Part shown: positions 1-5,723 of the stretch, piece by piece | How the letters are laid out: each line of letters starts with the position of its first letter | Numbering within the stretch: the first letter of the stretch is position 1 | Assembly: GCA_000004985.1 (NCBI GenBank) | Contig: GG739159.1 | Source: Naegleria gruberi | Taxonomy: Eukaryota | Length of the DNA: 5,723 nucleotides | Reading direction: 5' to 3' (one strand) | Made by a program: the position numbers and the translations under genes | Notes under the pieces: model-generated | Seen by the model: only the letters and a program-made list of their open reading frames with translations | Told to the model about the DNA's origin: nothing | Database searches by the model: none

Positions 1-1077
1 ATGCAGAGTACCAAAAAAAGTAAACATTATTATTCAATGTTTGCATTTGTTCAGGCATATTCAAAGGGTATATTGACATGGTTGGTTTCTTTGTTTACAA
101 AAGTATATTCCATTCCAATAGATAAATTTGATGATGAAAGTACATGGACTTCTTTACAGGAAGAGAAATTTCGAAAATTCATACAAGAGATGGAGAAAAA
201 TCCAACAATTGCTACATTATGTCATCTAATGAGATTAGGTTTAGATAATATTGAAATGAAAGAGTATATTCGAAATAATGATTCAAAATCATTGAGAGAA
301 TTATTGCCACAACGTTTGAAATTATATCTTGTACAGAAACGACGAAGATATTTCAATCTAATCAGTAATCAGATAAGACAAAATGTTTTCCTAGAATCCA
401 AATATCCAAATTTCCTGTCGTTTCTAGATAGAAACAAATCTATCTGTTTTTCCAATAATAATTATATGGCCAATGATGAATTTGTTGAGTTTGTACATAG
501 TGAAATCAAAGATGCACGGATTGCTAGAGATGAAAAGACTATTGGAAAGTCCATTCAAAAGAGAGTGTATGCAAATCAATTTGTTAGAGAATTGAAAAGT
601 TTCAAAACTTACAAAGAAACAGAATCATCTTGGGATTTGTCATCAAGTGTGAATGAAATTGTGAATTTACTTAATAAGCGTATAGGATTTGACAAGTCTT
701 CCATTTCTACATTTCATGCCAATCATAGGAAGAATATTGTTAATATTTTTACGTCCAACCATGCAGAGATTTTACCAAATGATGATCCTAAATTCAAATA
801 CGATAGCATCAGTGAAACAAAATTATTGGAATCTTTCACCAAAACAATTGAAAACACTCCCAATGACTCCACACAATCCAAGGATTTAAATTTAATTATT
901 TTAGATGATGATCCATTAAATACTAGTCAAGATTGTATCAGTAGTCCTTCAAAGAAGAGAAAAACACAAAGTGAACCATTGTTAATGGCCCCTCTCACAC
1001 AAGTAAACAAATCTAAACAGGGCCACAATGAATCAGCAACCTTCAATGTAGAGTTGCGAGGAACGATGCAACGTTAG
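1..1077 (+). CDS. Hypothetical N/K/S-rich protein of unknown function (358 codons). It flanks the retrotransposon, and the last 32 nt including the stop lie inside repeat A1. It may be 5'-partial at the window edge.
   Basis: Long open frame 1 over 1-1077, far longer than expected by chance in AT-rich DNA. It has a KKRK basic patch (SPSKKRKTQ) and an acidic-hydrophobic LIILDDD stretch. I recognise no conserved domain. It terminates at TAG 1075-1077, 30 nt inside the element's 5' repeat. Confidence 0.4.
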   Translation: MQSTKKSKHYYSMFAFVQAYSKGILTWLVSLFTKVYSIPIDKFDDESTWTSLQEEKFRKFIQEMEKNPTIATLCHLMRLGLDNIEMKEYIRNNDSKSLRELLPQRLKLYLVQKRRRYFNLISNQIRQNVFLESKYPNFLSFLDRNKSICFSNNNYMANDEFVEFVHSEIKDARIARDEKTIGKSIQKRVYANQFVRELKSFKTYKETESSWDLSSSVNEIVNLLNKRIGFDKSSISTFHANHRKNIVNIFTSNHAEILPNDDPKFKYDSISETKLLESFTKTIENTPNDSTQSKDLNLIILDDDPLNTSQDCISSPSKKRKTQSEPLLMAPLTQVNKSKQGHNESATFNVELRGTMQR

Positions 1078-1176
1078 TATTTCGACAAATTGTAAACAAT
1101 AAAATTGAGTTGATAAATAATTTTATGCTCAAAAAAATTAAGTATATTGAAATGGTTCAAACACCAAGCAAGGCGA
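1046..1176 (+). repeat. Split direct repeat A1 (131 bp), the 5' terminal repeat. It contains the gag 5' leader and the first codons of gag.
   Basis: Base-by-base comparison shows identity with 4984-5114 (131/131). The two copies diverge immediately after ...caagcaaggcga, continuing 'atatttcc' in one and 'cccaccca' in the other. Confidence 0.9.
1112..1119 (+). promoter_or_regulatory. TATA-like GATAAATA inside repeat A, about 30-40 nt upstream of the Kozak-context ATG at 1152. A second copy sits at 5050-5057 in A2.
   Basis: This is a sequence motif only and the genome is AT-rich, so the call is weak. Its position would place a transcription start just upstream of ATG 1152 (gaaATGg). Confidence 0.15.
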
Positions 1177-2177
1177 ATATTTCCAACATTCGTCAAAGAG
1201 TTTCAGCAAGCAAATCCTCAACTTCTACCTACAAGTCAGGTTACATCCCAGTAACTGACAATGGTAGCTCAGCTTCACTCCCCTCTGTGGTTGACCCAAC
1301 ATCCAAAACCTTGGATAACAACCAAGCTGGTTCTGAAAAGAACCTTGATGCTATTCTCAACGCCATCACTTCTTTGGGTGAGAGAATAAAGCATCTCGAA
1401 GCTGTTCCTCCTGTTCTGCAACAAGCTAATCAACTTGATGAAGACCCTGATGAGGAATCCGCTGATGAGGATTTCACTGGTAAACATTGGGGTCTAACTA
1501 CTATCAAGGAGATTAGACGTAACTACGAAGTTGGTGATAGACTATCCGATGGAGATGTCTTAAGTTTTGTCTCAGCCAAAACACTTCGTCATTACTCTTC
1601 CAATGAGGCGTTGTTGAATAGAGTTCAAGTTTTGATGGCTCGATTTGAATCTGTCATTCACAACTCTCGTAACTATCCTCGTCTGCAAGAAATTCAATCC
1701 AAAGGCTTGCAAAAGATGATGGAAATGTTACATTTGAAGTCTAAATTACTTCAGTTTGCTCTGAGCCATCCATTAAATGTAACCAACATCATTGAAATCA
1801 CTGAGTTGGTGTTTCTTCTCTCTGAGGTTGAGAAAATCTTTTTAGAAGAAGGTTTATTCGAAAGTAACTTTGATGTTGCGAACCAATTTATTCAACCCTT
1901 CATCCAAAGCAACACGTTTGCTGATATAACAGAAAAAGCTCGCCAAAAGAAGAGAGAGAAATCTGTAGTAAAGCATGCCATTACCAGCAAGATCCAAAAA
2001 CCTCTAAAGATGAAAGAAAAGTTTCAAAAACCGTCCTCTCATCAAGGTGGCATCCCTAACAGCTATTCAAAGCCATTCAACAATTACAACAAGAGTGGTT
2101 CCTCTTTTCAAAAGTCAGGAGATTCCAAGCCAAAGTACAATAACAATGGTGGAGGAGCTTTCAAACAAGACCTCTGA
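1125..2177 (+). CDS. gag-like ORF1 of the retrotransposon in frame 3 (350 aa). An alternative start at ATG 1152 has the better Kozak context.
   Basis: This is the first long ORF of the element, directly 5' of and overlapping the RT ORF, which is the position of gag in DIRS-type elements. It has a predicted helical or coiled stretch (LDAILNAITSLGERIKHLEA), an acidic tract and a basic K/N/S-rich C-terminal tail. There is no CCHC zinc knuckle. The ORF-track start at 1110 is a TTG, and the first ATGs are at 1125 and 1152. The stop is TGA 2175-2177. Confidence 0.55.
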   Translation: MLKKIKYIEMVQTPSKANISNIRQRVSASKSSTSTYKSGYIPVTDNGSSASLPSVVDPTSKTLDNNQAGSEKNLDAILNAITSLGERIKHLEAVPPVLQQANQLDEDPDEESADEDFTGKHWGLTTIKEIRRNYEVGDRLSDGDVLSFVSAKTLRHYSSNEALLNRVQVLMARFESVIHNSRNYPRLQEIQSKGLQKMMEMLHLKSKLLQFALSHPLNVTNIIEITELVFLLSEVEKIFLEEGLFESNFDVANQFIQPFIQSNTFADITEKARQKKREKSVVKHAITSKIQKPLKMKEKFQKPSSHQGGIPNSYSKPFNNYNKSGSSFQKSGDSKPKYNNNGGGAFKQDL

Positions 2178-4032
2178 CTTGGTAGGTTGCCGTCTCAACA
2201 AGTTTGTACCTCAGTGGGAGAGTTACAACTTCAACCCATTTATAGTGGATTGGATTCGAAATGGAGTCCCAATCTACTCAAATCCCACCCTTTGGAAAGA
2301 ATTCAAACAAAGGAAGAATTTCTCTCCAAAGGAAACCTCTTGGATGGATCAGGAAATCCAAGAGATGCTGAGTTCCAATGTAATAGAGATTGGAAACAGT
2401 TCAACAATATTGAACCCAATAAACATTGTACCCAAGAAGGGTTCGGATCAATTTCGCTTTATTCTAGACCTAAGGAAGGTCAATTTAGGAATAAAGGACA
2501 GTTCCTTCAAGATGGACAACATTCAAAGATGTTTGAAATTTGTTCAGAAGGGAATGTGGGCAACAAAGATAGACCTGAAGAAGGGTTACTTCCACGTTCC
2601 AATCAGGGAGAAACATCGCAATCTCCTTGGATTCAGGTACAAGGACAAGATTTATCAGTTCAAATGCCTACCGTTTGGGCTAAGTCAAGCTCCCAGAAAT
2701 TTCACAAAGATTATGAAAGAGTTAGTGACCAAGTGGAGAAAGCAGGGTATTCTAGTATTTATTTACATAGACGATATTTTGATTCTAAACAACAGCAAAG
2801 AAACTACCCAACTGCTCACAGACATAGTCATGAAGGATCTGGAGACATTGGGATGGATAATCCAGAAAGAGAAAAGCGTATTAGCACCGTGTCAACACAT
2901 AGAGTTTCTCGGTCTGGAACTGGATCTCGTACTTGGCCTTGTGAAAATCCCAGTCAACAAACAATCAACAGCCTTAGAAATGATTCAAAAATTCTTATCA
3001 GCAAACCAACGGAACAGGTTTGTAGCATGCAAGAAAGTAGCACAATTCCTCGGAAAGATGGAATTTCTAACTCTTTCAAACCATTACTTTGCTCCCTTTC
3101 TTGCTCGTCTTCGGAAGGATATGGTGAAAGTAGTAAACGACAAATCTTGGCACGCATCAATGAGAATATTCAGAGGTGCAGCGAAGGATCTAAATATTTT
3201 GAAAGATCTGATTCAGAAAAACAGTGGAATTCCCTTCGAACTGAATTCAACGAACCCAATTCGAGTGAATTCAGATGCCTGCCCAACAGGCTATGGAATT
3301 CACGCAGAGTCAACCATTACAATTGGAAGATTCACTTCCTCAGAACACATCAATGTGAAAGAGTTAAAAACACTCCTCATTTTCTTCACACAAGCAGATC
3401 GGTTAAACCTTTATGGTCCTGGACAAGCATTCGAAATCAGAGGCGACAATGTTACAGCAATTTCCTATATAAGGAGAGGTTACGGAGTCATAGAAGAACT
3501 CTCTCAAATCGCCAGAGACCTCTACAAGATCTTGATGAGAAGAAAATGGTGGATTTCAAAGGTGATTTACATTCCCTCAAAGGAGAACAATCTAGCAGAC
3601 AGACTGAGTCGCTTAACAGAATGGAAATCATCTCAAGAACTACTGCATCTAGTTCAGACAGAATTTGGAGAGCACCATGTGGACAGATTCGCGACATCGG
3701 AATCAACCACAACAATTCAATTCAACTCATGGATAGAGAACGACACATTCTTGAATCCATGGGAACAAAATCTGATGAGTTATTGTGTTCCTCCTCTGGG
3801 TCTGATATCTCAAGCTCTAGTTCATTGCATAAAATCAGAAGCGAAAGCGACATTTGTAGTTCCAGACTGGCCCTCTTCGATATGGTTTCCAGTCTTGCTA
3901 AAGATATCAGAAAGGATAATACCTGTTTCCCGAAAGATGCTTATAATAACGCCCTTGTCAGAGTTGCAAGACAAGTTCGAGACTTCCAATTTCCTGGTTG
4001 TTCAAGTGCATGGCAAGTTGTTCAAGCAATAA
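2146..4032 (+). CDS. Reverse transcriptase / RNase H polyprotein in frame 1. The frame is open from at least 2047, and the first ATG is at 2146 with an acaATGg context.
   Basis: RT blocks are present: NPINIVPKKGSDQFRFILDLRKVN, KIDLKKGYFHVP, FKCLPFGLSQAPRNF, FIYIDDILI (YIDD codons 2764-2775) and FLGLEL. RNase H has the catalytic Asp in RVNSDACPTGYGIH (Asp codon 3274-3276) and a C-terminal NNLADRLSRL motif. About 140 further residues follow before the stop TAA 4030-4032. Confidence 0.88.
   Translation: MVEELSNKTSDLVGCRLNKFVPQWESYNFNPFIVDWIRNGVPIYSNPTLWKEFKQRKNFSPKETSWMDQEIQEMLSSNVIEIGNSSTILNPINIVPKKGSDQFRFILDLRKVNLGIKDSSFKMDNIQRCLKFVQKGMWATKIDLKKGYFHVPIREKHRNLLGFRYKDKIYQFKCLPFGLSQAPRNFTKIMKELVTKWRKQGILVFIYIDDILILNNSKETTQLLTDIVMKDLETLGWIIQKEKSVLAPCQHIEFLGLELDLVLGLVKIPVNKQSTALEMIQKFLSANQRNRFVACKKVAQFLGKMEFLTLSNHYFAPFLARLRKDMVKVVNDKSWHASMRIFRGAAKDLNILKDLIQKNSGIPFELNSTNPIRVNSDACPTGYGIHAESTITIGRFTSSEHINVKELKTLLIFFTQADRLNLYGPGQAFEIRGDNVTAISYIRRGYGVIEELSQIARDLYKILMRRKWWISKVIYIPSKENNLADRLSRLTEWKSSQELLHLVQTEFGEHHVDRFATSESTTTIQFNSWIENDTFLNPWEQNLMSYCVPPLGLISQALVHCIKSEAKATFVVPDWPSSIWFPVLLKISERIIPVSRKMLIITPLSELQDKFETSNFLVVQVHGKLFKQ
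2178..3881 (+). other. Stop-free overprinted reading frame (frame 3). It runs from the gag TGA to the YR start, overlapping RT/RNase H in the -1 frame, and encodes an S/R/Q-rich low-complexity sequence.
   Basis: Frame 3 has no stop from 2178 to 4937 (916 codons). About 568 of these (2178-3881) overlap the frame-1 RT gene. In AT-rich DNA roughly 1 triplet in 13-20 is a stop, so this run cannot be chance. A dual-coding arrangement of this kind is known for the RT and recombinase ORFs of DIRS1. Confidence 0.5.
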
Positions 4033-4937
4033 GGGATCTTAGTATCCTTTCATCAATAGCTGAGAAAACATTCAGAACTTATAATAGAATTTATGGTGGT
4101 TTTCTCTGGTTTATCAATGTGTTTGATCTCACCATTGATGATCCTATAGCTATTGAATATTACATCTCATACCTCTTGATAAATATTCAAGGATACAAAG
4201 CAAAAACTGTGCAAGCAGCAATTCAATTCTTTGCTAACCTTGATGGCAAACCCATTACCATCTCTGCCTCCTACTCTAAGGTTAAAAAAGGTGTACTGAA
4301 ACTTTATACACTCTCGGATAAAGTTTCTCTTCAAAGAGATCCAATTACAGTCAAACATTTGACTGATTATGTGAAGTGCAAAGACAAAGTGGACAATTTC
4401 ACTTTTCGACTCACTTCTGCTATTCTAGTGGTTGGTTTCAGACTATTTGCAAGACCTGGTGAGGTTGCGCGCTTAAAATGGTCCTATATCAAGGTTCTCA
4501 AGAATGGAAAAATCAAAATTGACCTCAGTGGTCACAAAACTGATTTCTTCCTTATTGAAAAACCAATTACTATTGACAAGAATACAAAGAATCCAAGTCT
4601 TTGCCCAATAACCCTACTAAATTCGTATATGGATTTGGTTCGTGAATTTAAAGATGACGATTCTCCTTTGTTTTCCTACGAAAACAACAAATTCCTTGAT
4701 TCAAATGATATTTCTAAGATACTCAAGAATGCGGTGGGTATGGTTGACCAAGATGTGAGAGTTTCTGGGCACAGCATTAGAATTGGAGCCATCACAGAAG
4801 GACTTAGAAAAGGTGTTTCTACTTCAGATCTCATGGTTGGTGCAAGACATAAGAAAACCAACAGTTTATTTCCTTATCTACGATCTGAGGGTCTTGCTGG
4901 CAAGAATTTCACAGACACCTTATTTTCTCTGGACTAA
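3882..4937 (+). CDS. Tyrosine recombinase (lambda-integrase family) in frame 3. ATG 3882 is the nearest in-frame ATG upstream of the domain and would give a 351-aa protein. The frame itself is open back to 2178.
   Basis: The catalytic signature is present: Arg in FARPGEVARLKW (about 4452-4454), H-x-x-R in GHSIRIGAIT (His 4770-4772, Arg 4779-4781), His in GARHKK, and the nucleophile Tyr in NSLFPYL (codon 4875-4877). The stop is TAA 4935-4937, directly abutting repeat B1. Confidence 0.78.
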   Translation: MVSSLAKDIRKDNTCFPKDAYNNALVRVARQVRDFQFPGCSSAWQVVQAIRDLSILSSIAEKTFRTYNRIYGGFLWFINVFDLTIDDPIAIEYYISYLLINIQGYKAKTVQAAIQFFANLDGKPITISASYSKVKKGVLKLYTLSDKVSLQRDPITVKHLTDYVKCKDKVDNFTFRLTSAILVVGFRLFARPGEVARLKWSYIKVLKNGKIKIDLSGHKTDFFLIEKPITIDKNTKNPSLCPITLLNSYMDLVREFKDDDSPLFSYENNKFLDSNDISKILKNAVGMVDQDVRVSGHSIRIGAITEGLRKGVSTSDLMVGARHKKTNSLFPYLRSEGLAGKNFTDTLFSLD

Positions 4938-4985
4938 CCCATTGGTTTATCAACGATTGTTTTATTGTTTCTTTTGGAGAAATAT
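4937..4985 (+). repeat. Split direct repeat B1 (49 bp), the internal copy of the 3' terminal repeat. It lies immediately 5' of A2 and shares 'at' with it.
   Basis: Identical (49/49) to 5603-5651: acccattggtttatcaacgattgttttattgtttcttttggagaaatat. Confidence 0.85.
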
Positions 4986-5114
4986 GTAGAGTTGCGAGGA
5001 ACGATGCAACGTTAGTATTTCGACAAATTGTAAACAATAAAATTGAGTTGATAAATAATTTTATGCTCAAAAAAATTAAGTATATTGAAATGGTTCAAAC
5101 ACCAAGCAAGGCGA
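4984..5114 (+). repeat. Split direct repeat A2 (131 bp), the internal copy of the 5' terminal repeat. It includes a duplicated gag start codon at 5090.
   Basis: Matches 1046-1176 at 131/131 with an offset of 3938 nt. The duplicated ATG at 5090 reads MVQTPSKATHPPVPLFETSGIP and then reaches a stop after 22 codons. Confidence 0.9.
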
Positions 5115-5602
5115 CCCACCCACCCGTTCCCTTATTTGAAACTTCAGGAATTCCTTGAATTCCTTCAATTAGTATTTCACTCCTTGAGTGTTTTTCCTCT
5201 TTGTCTTTTAGATCGATCTTGGTAAGTGATCCTTCTATGGATGCAGGATTAGTATCACCTTGTGATACAATAATTTTTATTTCTAACTAACATCATTTGA
5301 ATAATTCGAAATATGCTCGTAAAGTAAGCCAGATTTATTTTTTCAAAAAATATTTCTGATGGAAATTACCAGGCATTTTTTTACAAGCAATTCACCTTTT
5401 AAAACTTTAATGGATTGGAGTTTTTACCGATTTTTTCCTGCAATGCAGGTTTTTTATAGGGGAGTTGTTCTACTTCAATCTCGATTTTGTAAACAACTTT
5501 ATTAACTCGGGACAATGCTGAATAAAGTCAATGACCTAAAAGGCAGCATTTCTGAGCAACATACCTCATCCTTTGGATGAAGAATATGTTGAGTGAGCTT
5601 CT
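5115..5602 (+). other. Unique 488-bp non-coding spacer between A2 and B2 (3' untranslated or structural region of the element).
   Basis: There is no ORF of 60 aa or more on either strand. The region contains CCCACCCACCC (5115-5125), a tandem 9-mer GAATTCCTT x2 (5148-5165), short hairpins (5252-5268, 5437-5449), T-runs and an AATAAA at 5521-5526. Confidence 0.5.
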
Positions 5603-5651
5603 ACCCATTGGTTTATCAACGATTGTTTTATTGTTTCTTTTGGAGAAATAT
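5603..5651 (+). repeat. Split direct repeat B2 (49 bp), the 3' terminal repeat of the element.
   Basis: Identical to 4937-4985. Similarity to the first copy ends at 5651/5652, with 'atata' here against 'atatg' at the B1/A2 junction. Confidence 0.85.
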
Positions 5652-5715
5652 AACAAATACAAAAGTACGTCTTTGCATTTGTTGTACACTGAGTAATCGT
5701 TAGTTCTGAGAGCAC

Positions 5716-5721
5716 AATAAA
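5716..5721 (+). promoter_or_regulatory. AATAAA hexamer in the 3' flank, a possible polyadenylation signal of the interrupted flanking gene.
   Basis: This is a sequence motif only, about 65 nt downstream of the element's end. AT-rich DNA makes chance occurrence plausible. Confidence 0.2.
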
Positions 5722-5723
5722 AA

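Follow-up and report, generated by a model that had tools for sequence, protein, structure and literature searches.

A stop-free frame overprinting pol links the gag stop to the tyrosine recombinase in a PAT/DIRS-like retrotransposon of Naegleria gruberi

The tyrosine recombinase (YR) of an intact retrotransposon in Naegleria gruberi DNA was found to form the C-terminal 300 codons of a 919-codon open reading frame (ORF; 2178–4937), which lies in the gag frame and opens at the codon directly after the gag stop, a TGA followed by C. Over its first 618 codons this ORF overprints pol; there it is kept free of stops by selection, while its amino-acid sequence is not preserved. Judging from the sequence, we put at roughly 40% the probability that most YR is produced as the C-terminal part of this long ORF, with ribosomes entering at UGA_C, and that a +1 shift at the same place gives access to pol.

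The window analysed here is the whole 5,723-nt stretch of contig GG739159.1 (assembly GCA_000004985.1). It holds a Naegleria gruberi-type host gene split by a 4.6-kb PAT/DIRS-like YR retrotransposon, and the following features could be placed, all on the forward strand (+).

1046–5651 (+): PAT/DIRS-like YR retrotransposon, complete (4,606 bp), with split direct repeats at its ends and intact gag, pol and YR ORFs
1046–1176 (+): repeat A1, 131 nt, 100% identical to 4984–5114; holds the gag start ATGs 1125 and 1152
1125–2177 (+): gag ORF, frame 3; stop TGA 2175–2177, then C 2178
2014–4032 (+): pol ORF, frame 1, stop to stop; reverse transcriptase (RT) about 2428–2922, RNase H (RH) region, Dam-like methyltransferase (MT) about 3619–3927, stop TAA 4030–4032
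2175–2178 (+): TGA_C tetranucleotide, candidate recoding site; gag stop, pol-frame codon GAC (2176–2178) and, at 2178, the first codon of the long ORF
2178–4031 (+): "X", the stretch of the gag/YR frame that overprints pol (-1 relative to it), 618 codons; no stops, amino-acid sequence not conserved
3882–3884 (+): ATG put forward by the original prediction; present only in the window and the L001 lineage
4029–4032 (+): ATAA at the pol stop; ATGA in relatives, a YR start codon overlapping the pol stop, its ATG lost in the window
4032–4937 (+): conserved tyrosine recombinase, N-terminal domain plus catalytic domain about 4449–4883, stop TAA 4935–4937
4937–4985 (+): repeat B1, 49 nt, abutting A2, with the dinucleotide AT common to both
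4984–5114 (+): repeat A2, 100% identical to A1
5603–5651 (+): repeat B2, 100% identical to B1

The element was classified using published definitions of the PAT, DIRS1-like and Toc3-like groups (PMC4157794). Its repeats run in the order A1...B1A2...B2 with 100% identity within both repeat families (D1, D2), which is the arrangement of the PAT superfamily; terminal inverted repeats of the DIRS1-like superfamily were absent from the element, where the best inverted pair was internal (26 nt, 77%). As in the DIRS order, whose RT is of the Ty3/gypsy-related type, an RT was recovered (Pfam RVT_1, E = 2.5e-24, 86.6 bits), and a tyrosine recombinase takes the place of a DDE integrase, with no Pfam match to rve or protease in any ORF of the element. 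The MT of the DIRS group could be recognised by PF05869 Dam (E = 7.1e-6; 26.2 bits, slightly under the cut-off of 28.1), a family also precomputed for the relatives P0006 and P0009. RNase H gave no Pfam match in pol and was recognised by eye only, from the motif pattern SDA...KEL...GDN...NLADRLSR. The gag product contains no Cys and thus no zinc finger, which makes the element Toc3-like rather than Pat1-like in form. By these structural criteria it resembles Toc3-like PAT elements in the order gag, RT-RH-MT, forward YR, in the internal B1A2 pair downstream of YR and in the lack of protease, DDE integrase and Gag Cys, and differs from them in a 490-nt non-coding A2-to-B2 spacer and in its host, a heterolobosean amoeba. 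DIRS-1 and the DIRS1-like elements share the MT domain but carry inverted terminal repeats and an internal complementary region instead of split direct repeats. An identity as Ngaro was rejected, since Ngaro elements have split direct repeats but by definition no MT. The nearest named relatives were Naegleria predicted proteins, with pol homologues at 52–57% identity, and a metagenome scan for further family members returned two short loci only. Taken by itself, the element is for the most part an ordinary find, being an intact representative of a known class whose ORF overlap has been documented.

Analysis of the recombinase revealed a complete catalytic set, made up of the residues named in the original prediction and a Lys besides: Arg at 4452–4454 (ARPGE), Lys at 4536–4538 (GHKTD), His at 4770–4772 and Arg at 4779–4781 (HSIR), His at 4848–4850 (RH) and Tyr at 4875–4877 (FPY). 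Both Arg and the Tyr were invariant in an 8-sequence alignment, while the His of RH is Trp in several relatives. The single sequence scored 25.4 bits against Pfam Phage_integrase, under the cut-off of 27.1; the family profile matched XerA (1.3e-7) and Cre (3e-6), and the best Foldseek matches of the AlphaFold model were Cre (8e-7, top), followed by XerA and lambda Int. The comparison with Cre, Xer and lambda Int proposed earlier thus bore out the assignment, with the same two-domain fold and the R-K-H-R-H/W-Y residues at their usual spacing, although the element's YR is only 14–18% identical to these proteins, belongs to a eukaryotic retroelement and has His in place of the Trp of several relatives. 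The conserved, folded recombinase begins after the pol stop. In the 351-aa product that would start at ATG 3882, residues 1–50 had a pLDDT of 38–56, and alignment cover there was only partial, from P0054 alone.

YR is in frame 3 and pol in frame 1, in agreement with the -1 relation claimed earlier between YR and RT/RNase H; the same relation was seen in 10 of 10 elements examined. The overlap, which had been placed at 3882–4032, is far longer. Frame 3 is stop-free from 2178 to 4934, the sole stop between 1032 and 4935 being the gag TGA; the true overlap is therefore 1,855 nt (2178–4032) and covers all of pol. Chance comes nowhere near such openness. When pol was shuffled among synonymous codons, the X frame held 37.0 +/- 4.3 stops (minimum 23, n = 1000) against none observed in its 617 codons, while the +1 frame of pol holds 66. 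In the window's pol ORF (2014–4029), 196 of 672 codon junctions are one T short of a stop, and the only one that has the T is the gag TGA. The element's own gag ORF and YR-only ORF have 33 and 30 stops, respectively, in their -1 frames.

The open X frame was common to eight relatives, with pol identity down to 26–29%. No X-frame stop was present in L001, L002, L003 and L005 (29–39 expected) or in L006 (36 expected), and L009 had one (26 expected). A degenerate N. lovaniensis copy with a frameshift in pol has kept the X frame open before and after the lesion. Ordinary numbers of stops were counted in two DIRS-like elements that lack the long overlap (49 vs 50.5 and 45 vs 64 expected). The openness could in principle be functionless, either a relic or a by-product of composition; the X amino-acid sequence is not conserved, and the long overlap is missing from L007 and L008, as it is from half of the described DIRS1-like elements (PMC3266345). 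But between lineages the third positions of pol codons are nearly saturated (40–45% identity), and the frame has nevertheless stayed open in at least seven of them; together with the avoided T at the codon junctions and the stop-rich -1 frames of gag and YR, this leaves a functionless frame with scarcely any probability.

X as a conserved protein was likewise rejected. Its amino-acid identity was 0.73 in a close pair and 0.27–0.34 in distant pairs (five lineages), no higher than that of the stop-rich +1 frame. A homology search with the 916-aa ORF returned one close relative only, and Pfam recognised nothing in X. The product would be hydrophilic, basic and Ser/Arg-rich (GRAVY -0.96, pI 9.3), which, along with the low identity, is expected of a spacer that needs only to be translatable.

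A long pol/YR overlap is in itself already documented for DIRS elements. In DIRS1-like elements with a "long ORF overlap", the YR ORF overlaps pol extensively and has its catalytic domain in the non-overlapping 3' end (PMC3266345), and DIRS-1 of Dictyostelium carries three overlapping ORFs on one mRNA (PMC3950715). The present element is alike in its extensive overlap and in its catalytic domain in the free 3' end; it differs in that the overlap is selected for openness only and starts exactly at a conserved gag TGA_C. Neither of these two points was found in the DIRS papers examined, which record the overlap without giving a mechanism of expression.

The start of the long ORF was examined in the related elements. 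All 9 of them end gag with TGA and then C, though the flanking proteins vary in sequence and length (P = 0.01 if the pol-frame Asp is assumed to be constrained, about 1e-5 if it is not), and conserved pol sequence begins at GAC 2176–2178. The long ORF shares the gag frame and opens with the codon immediately 3' of the gag stop in the window, L001–L005, L010 and L011; that of L006 already opens 155 nt before the gag stop and is +1 relative to gag. The elements have no conserved start codon, and their first long-ORF ATG stands at codon 117, 117, 19, 41, 39 and 15; in the window, seven stops would be expected before this ATG and none is present (P = 9e-4). UGA is the leakiest stop, and C at +4 impairs eRF1 (PMC6614816); yeast antizyme shifts +1 at NNN_UGA_C (PMC5009743). 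As at a recoding site, a conserved leaky stop context was found, with the in-frame long ORF and the +1 pol ORF both contiguous with the stop.

The reading we favour is that ribosomes would traverse X in the gag/YR frame after entering at the gag stop, with the conserved, slowly decoded UGA_C as a putative branch point. Most ribosomes would terminate there and release Gag (341 aa from ATG 1152), some may shift +1 and read GAC onward to give Gag-Pol (341 + 618 codons), and others may read through to give Gag-X-YR (about 1,261 codons), in which YR would be tied to Gag by a long, disordered, basic spacer in an element without a protease to cut it out. The full three-way division between Gag, Gag-Pol and Gag-X-YR, with the roughly 618 X codons serving only as a translatable disordered tether, is rather doubtful as a whole. 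A short, AUG-started YR may also be made, from ATGA in relatives and possibly from ATG 3882 here, without being the main feature of the design.

The proposed +1 event resembles the "shifty stop" of antizyme (yeast GCG_UGA_C) and Ty3 in having NNN_UGA_C at the junction of the upstream and +1 ORFs and conserved sequence from the +1 codon GAC, a likeness drawn from sequence. It differs in that the P-site codons of the family vary (CTC, CAA, AAA, ACT, GGC, TTC) and no stimulator was found: the consensus structure of about 130 nt 3' of the gag UGA (-7.6 kcal/mol, positive covariation term) offered no convincing conserved fold, and a lone hairpin about 85 nt downstream falls in conserved coding sequence. 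The proposed read-through resembles that of MuLV gag-pol and of the alphaviruses (UGA-C) in that a single in-frame UGA followed by C separates gag from a long enzyme-bearing ORF; here, no downstream pseudoknot or hairpin was detected, and the product would cross 618 overprinted, unconserved codons. Several points weigh against the favoured reading. TGA_C cannot be separated from the pol-frame codon GAC, and a +1 shift by itself would suit it; read-through cannot be universal, because the long ORF of L006 is +1 relative to gag; the long overlap is wholly missing from L007 and L008; a 618-residue unconserved spacer would be an unusual design; and the independent lineages are few (about seven).

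A further such point is an ATG at the pol stop, which suggests a separately initiated short YR that the model does not require. ATGA was present there in 7 of the 8 lineages with a pol stop at this place, namely among L002–L005 and the lineages of P0052, P0053, P0056 and P0057 (with a rate of 0.26 expected by chance, P of at least 7/8 = 5e-4), and YR proteins called in these lineages begin M-R-[D/E/N]. Termination-reinitiation at an overlapping stop and start (AUGA/UAAUG) is known from caliciviruses, influenza B and SART1; the relatives are alike in that the YR ATG overlaps the pol TGA, while the window differs in having ATAA. The window and L001, which both have ATAA, uniquely carry ATG 3882, their nearest upstream in-frame ATG.

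The original prediction had proposed ATG 3882 as a candidate start of an independent recombinase. The in-frame ATG exists, in the context cgatATGg (G at -3 and at +4), and would give the 351 residues claimed, but it is not conserved, an outcome named beforehand as one that would refute it: among copies it was found only in L001 (92% pol identity), and L002–L005 have Leu or Ser at this position. It arises from a synonymous Ile codon (ATA) before a conserved pol Trp codon (ATA TGG). As 49 ATG triplets precede it within the element, a scanning ribosome would reach 3882 only by way of a subgenomic or spliced RNA or by reinitiation. Nor can an independent 351-aa ORF explain why the 1.7 kb of YR frame before this ATG is free of stops. 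Because the recombinase is the tail of a 919-codon stop-free frame across the whole pol gene, a start at 3882 is at best secondary and lineage-specific.

A separately initiated YR is credible as a family trait. That such a short YR, begun at an AUG near the pol end (at ATGA in relatives by termination-reinitiation or from a subgenomic RNA, at ATG 3882 in the window's lineage), should be the whole explanation is possible, though we consider it unlikely. The conserved fold beginning directly after the pol stop would suit it, as would the exchange of ATGA for ATG 3882 with its two flanking purines in the window and L001. It leaves the stop-free 1.7 kb, conserved in eight elements, unaccounted for; an AUG near the YR start is missing altogether from L007 and L008; and the Met could simply reflect the overlapping pol stop, which leaves room for few residues (M/I/V).

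Frameshift signals between pol and YR were sought as well. No pol-frame X_XXY_YYZ heptamer occurs in 3882–4032, as had been noted before, and the argument drawn from this against a classical -1 frameshift could be sustained at the pol end and extended to the relatives. Across the whole overlap (2178–4032) the only pol-frame heptamer was AAATTTC at 2697, which was not positionally conserved in five relatives. Folding around 3795–3920, including the inverted repeat 3801–3815/3897–3911 that brackets ATG 3882, was not significant (z = -1.07). A classical retroviral-type -1 shift from pol to YR was therefore rejected, there being no conserved heptamer and no significant structure, as was transcriptional slippage, since homopolymers of 6 or more are absent from pol. 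A non-canonical -1 (or +2) shift from pol into X and YR, at an early site or at many sites, which would yield Gag-Pol-YR or Pol-YR, is improbable. It would be in keeping with the -1 position of YR in all 10 elements, and a scan of four distant elements found one heptamer, the canonical U_UUA_AAC in the gag/pol overlap of L007, which indicates that -1 shifting is used in this class of element. But besides the missing signals, a shift near the pol end needs no openness back to the gag stop, and if pol is entered by +1 from gag, a -1 return would equal never having shifted.

Splicing could also be envisaged as the source of a YR mRNA, either by removal of a 71-nt GT...AG interval (4017–4087) or by a larger intron joining 5' gag to X. 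The N. gruberi gene model P0051 joins pol-frame MLIITPLSELQDKFETSNFLVVQVHGK to YR-frame IYGGF..., and the GT and AG of the interval are both kept in L001. The GT is missing in L002–L005, however, and the interval encodes YR-frame residues conserved at 50% divergence (R51, S58, T63 and Y67, alignment numbering); this "intron" was rejected as not conserved and within coding sequence, and the P0051 junction is probably an artefact of ab initio prediction that bridges two frames. Neither version accounts for the openness of X, and splicing appears very unlikely.

For annotation, these results mean that Naegleria gene models mis-splice or fuse the gag/YR and pol frames, as in P0051 and the N. lovaniensis protein C9374_003761. 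With an overprinted frame selected to be stop-free, an invariant TGA_C start and an alternative ATGA at the pol stop, the element family offers a clean quantitative handle on DIRS expression, and because Naegleria is culturable, the question of expression is directly testable there. If the three-way reading of UGA_C is true, it would be the first case of frameshifting and read-through at one codon for two alternative Gag fusions, and it would solve a puzzle of 40 years' standing, the long pol/YR ORF overlap in DIRS elements.

An intact tyrosine recombinase (YR) retrotransposon was located at 1046–5651 of the 5,723-nt window, the G+C content of which was 37%. The features of the element and its surroundings were as follows.

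From 1: ORF0, ATG at 1, 358 aa as listed, extending 32 nt into repeat A1
1046–1176: repeat A1, 100% identical to A2 (4984–5114)
1046–1051: upstream ORF 1, ATG-TAG
1066–1077: upstream ORF 2, ATGCAACGTTAG
1125 or 1152 to 2177: gag, frame 3, start ATG 1125 or 1152, stop TGA 2175–2177
2014–4032: pol, frame 1, open throughout
Ending at 4937: YR, frame 3
4937–4985: repeat B1, 100% identical to B2 (5603–5651), adjoining A2

The two upstream ORFs are tiny and lie in the presumed leader in repeat A1 (1046–1160), and the two gag ATGs share a frame, 9 codons apart. Profile analysis of pol revealed an RVT_1 match (E = 2.5e-24) and a Dam-like methyltransferase (MT) domain (26.2 bits), while no cysteine was present in the whole Gag sequence. 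By the published criteria for PAT and DIRS1-like elements of the DIRS order (PMC4157794, PMC3266345), the element is a PAT element of the Toc3-like form, because it combines the MT domain and split direct repeats with a Gag without zinc finger; it is not DIRS1-like, since no inverted terminal repeats occur in it. Both the element class and the pol/YR ORF overlap as a feature of that class are known. The complete identity within both repeat pairs, together with intact gag, pol and YR, suggests that this copy is a very recent insertion and possibly active. The approximately 490 nt between A2 and B2 (5115–5602) are non-coding, with no + strand ORF of at least 50 aa, and carry CCCACCCACCC directly 3' of A2; 3' UTR, terminator and replication signal are candidate roles for this interval.

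The flanks (1–1047 and 5652–5723) look like a single host gene split by the element. When 1048–5651 was taken out, ORF0 stayed in frame (...ATFN joined to NKYKSTSLHLLYTE) up to a TAA at 5694–5696, and an AATAAA was present at 5716–5721, 3' of the rejoined stop. ORF0 had no Pfam match, and no homologue of it could be found in the N. lovaniensis locus. The dinucleotide AT was shared by the junction of B with A and by each end of the insertion, which is the pattern that integration by a YR, with no target-site duplication, should leave.

Frame mapping placed YR in the −1 frame relative to pol, in agreement with the original prediction, which had also correctly described an ATG at 3882, a 351-aa product from it and the presence of the catalytic residues. 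The context of the ATG is cgatATGg, and the catalytic set is R 4452, K 4536, H 4770, R 4779, H 4848, Y 4875. Comparison with known recombinases revealed profile matches to XerA (1.3e-7) and Cre (3e-6), and the top Foldseek match of the AlphaFold model (pLDDT 64.8) was Cre (8e-7). Codon 4848–4850 encodes His (RHK), and Trp is found there in several relatives (RWK, NWA, GWT, DWS, SWK); either residue is found here among tyrosine recombinases, for example Trp in Cre and His in XerD. YR shared 98% identity with a 'predicted protein [Naegleria gruberi]', and two more N. gruberi proteins matched at 85% and 53%. With the degenerate copy in N. lovaniensis described below, these matches identify the host as N. 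gruberi or a species very near to it.

The pol/YR overlap had been placed at 3882–4032, which was incorrect. The original observation is confirmed in part, and its interpretation is supported in part. Since the gag TGA is the sole frame 3 stop between 1032 and 4935, the YR frame, which is also the gag frame, is open from 2178 over all of pol, and the true overlap is 1,855 nt. The −1 frame of pol contained 0 stops against 37.0 ± 4.3 in synonymous-codon shuffles of pol (n = 1000; lowest count 23). The +1 frame had 66 stops, and the −1 frame had 33 in gag and 30 in the YR-only region. At 196 pol codon junctions (2014–4029), a T in the third position of the first codon would create a stop; T was present at only one, the gag stop.

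Relatives were recovered from public assemblies, with pol identity to the window of 92% (L001) and 53–60% (L002–L005). The overprinting frame (X, 618 codons, 2178–4031) had no stops in L001, L002, L003 and L005 (29–39 expected) or in L006 (29% pol identity; 36 expected), and one in L009 (26% pol identity; 26 expected). Counts were ordinary in L007 and L008, which are without the long overlap (49 vs 50.5 and 45 vs 64 expected). In a degenerate N. lovaniensis copy, X was open on either side of a pol frameshift. Amino acid identity of X was 0.73 for the close pair and 0.27–0.34 for distant pairs among five lineages; the corresponding values were 0.73 and 0.29–0.36 for the stop-rich +1 frame and 0.92 and 0.53–0.60 for pol. 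As X identity did not exceed that of the +1 frame, its amino acid sequence is not conserved, and the long open frame is, on these comparisons, under selection for translatability and not for sequence. The X product would be hydrophilic (GRAVY ~−1), basic (pI 9.3–11.6) and Ser/Arg-rich.

A 'long ORF overlap' was described by Piednoel et al. in half of 28 DIRS1-like elements, with the catalytic YR domain in the 3' end outside the overlap (PMC3266345), and in DIRS-1 a single mRNA carries three ORFs that overlap (PMC3950715). No mechanism of expression for the DIRS long overlap was given in the literature reviewed, where quantitative evidence for X being selected for openness alone also appears unreported. 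The overprinted ORF of L006 (1083–4187) is longer still, with 1,034 codons that also cover the end of gag; relative to gag, this ORF is in the +1 frame and pol in the −1 frame, and an A_AAC_CCC heptamer lies within the 19-nt gag/pol overlap. The degenerate copy L010 (N. lovaniensis PYSW02000001.1, 5641–7710) is annotated 'hypothetical protein C9374_003761' (P0010); its pol homology leaves frame 1 for frame 2 at ~6500, so the 569-aa P0010 combines pol-frame and X-frame sequence. Downstream of L010 pol, no YR was present.

In the window, L001–L005, L010 and L011, the long ORF shares the frame of gag and its first codon directly follows the gag stop. The long ORF of L006 uses a different frame and opens 155 nt before the gag stop. 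No conserved start codon was present, the first ATG being at codon 117, 117, 19, 41, 39 or 15; the expectation for the window is ~7 stops ahead of this ATG (P = 9e-4). The gag stop was TGA followed by C in 9/9 elements with the gag-frame arrangement, and the nearby gag C-termini and pol N-termini differed in sequence and length. In the pol frame the stop reads xxT GAC, always with GAC although GAC:GAT usage is 124:114 in these pol ORFs (P ~0.01 for seven lineages; ~1e-5 if the residue is unconstrained). Conserved pol sequence (GGRL..F..W motif) begins a few codons 3' of this GAC. UGA is the leakiest stop, and +4 C impairs eRF1 (PMC6614816); the yeast antizyme +1 shift site, NNN_UGA_C, is intrinsically very shifty (PMC5009743), and the same motif stands at the gag stop here. 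From the conservation of UGA_C, its leaky and antizyme-like type and the onset of pol conservation just after it, we infer recoding at the gag stop. A +1 shift would yield Gag-Pol (341 + 618 codons), and read-through would yield Gag-X-YR (1,261 codons from ATG 1152). No stimulatory RNA structure was detected at the gag stop. The reading we favour, with a probability of about 0.4, is that YR is produced mainly as the C-terminal part of the long ORF in the gag frame, which ribosomes would enter at the conserved UGA_C. An invariant TGA_C at the meeting point of three reading frames appears unreported in the literature reviewed. Ahead of the gag stop, the pol frame contains no stop over 164 nt (2014–2177), and its ATG 2146 is GTG in L001, the closest relative, which argues against independent pol initiation there.

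Non-canonical −1 frameshifting from pol was also considered; 10/10 elements have YR in the −1 frame of pol, but neither a conserved site nor a structure was found. The absence of a pol-frame X_XXY_YYZ heptamer near the pol end was confirmed for 3882–4032, and scanning the full overlap revealed only AAATTTC at 2697, which is not common to relatives. Splicing of 4017–4087, a 71-nt GT-AG 'intron' in the N. gruberi gene model P0051, was rejected: as the GT is not conserved and the interval codes for conserved YR residues, an artefact of gene prediction is the most likely explanation. P0051, the model of the 98%-identical copy (window 3936–4091), is a chimera fusing the last 27 pol-frame residues to YR and dropping conserved YR N-terminal residues. 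Transcriptional slippage was rejected given no homopolymer runs of 6 nt or more in pol. In L007, a distant DIRS-like metagenome relative, pol is −1 of gag, a canonical U_UUA_AAC lies at 1670–1676 in the gag/pol overlap, and no AUG occurs within 258 nt of the YR ORF start.

The main rival, which we consider somewhat unlikely, is a short AUG-initiated YR, and this product and the long gag-frame one may coexist. The pol stop is TGA after A, so that a YR-frame ATG overlaps it (ATGA), in L002–L005 and in the lineages of the related predicted proteins P0052, P0053, P0056 and P0057, and the called YR proteins begin M-R-[D/E/N]. Among the four configurations compatible with the overlapping stop (ATGA, ATAA, GTGA, GTAA), ATGA occurred in 7/8 lineages, above chance (P ~5e-4 at p = 0.26; 0.035 at p = 0.5). 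This enrichment makes a short YR of 302–306 aa probable for a large part of the family, perhaps made by termination-reinitiation. The window and L001 have ATAA, and their sole nearby in-frame ATG is 3882, which arises from the pol Ile codon ATA before a conserved Trp codon. The proposal that YR starts at ATG 3882 thus stands as a plausible lineage-specific replacement but not as a conserved start, and it fails the conservation criterion that the original prediction set for it: only these two elements have it, and L002–L005 carry ATT or CAT there, so that the YR frame encodes Leu or Ser. Moreover, 49 ATG triplets lie upstream, the extra 50 residues overlap pol and were modelled at pLDDT 38–56 (weak evidence, the alignment being shallow there), and a start at 3882 leaves the long open frame unexplained. 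The openness-only selection on X and the invariant TGA_C make the question of how YR is expressed directly testable.
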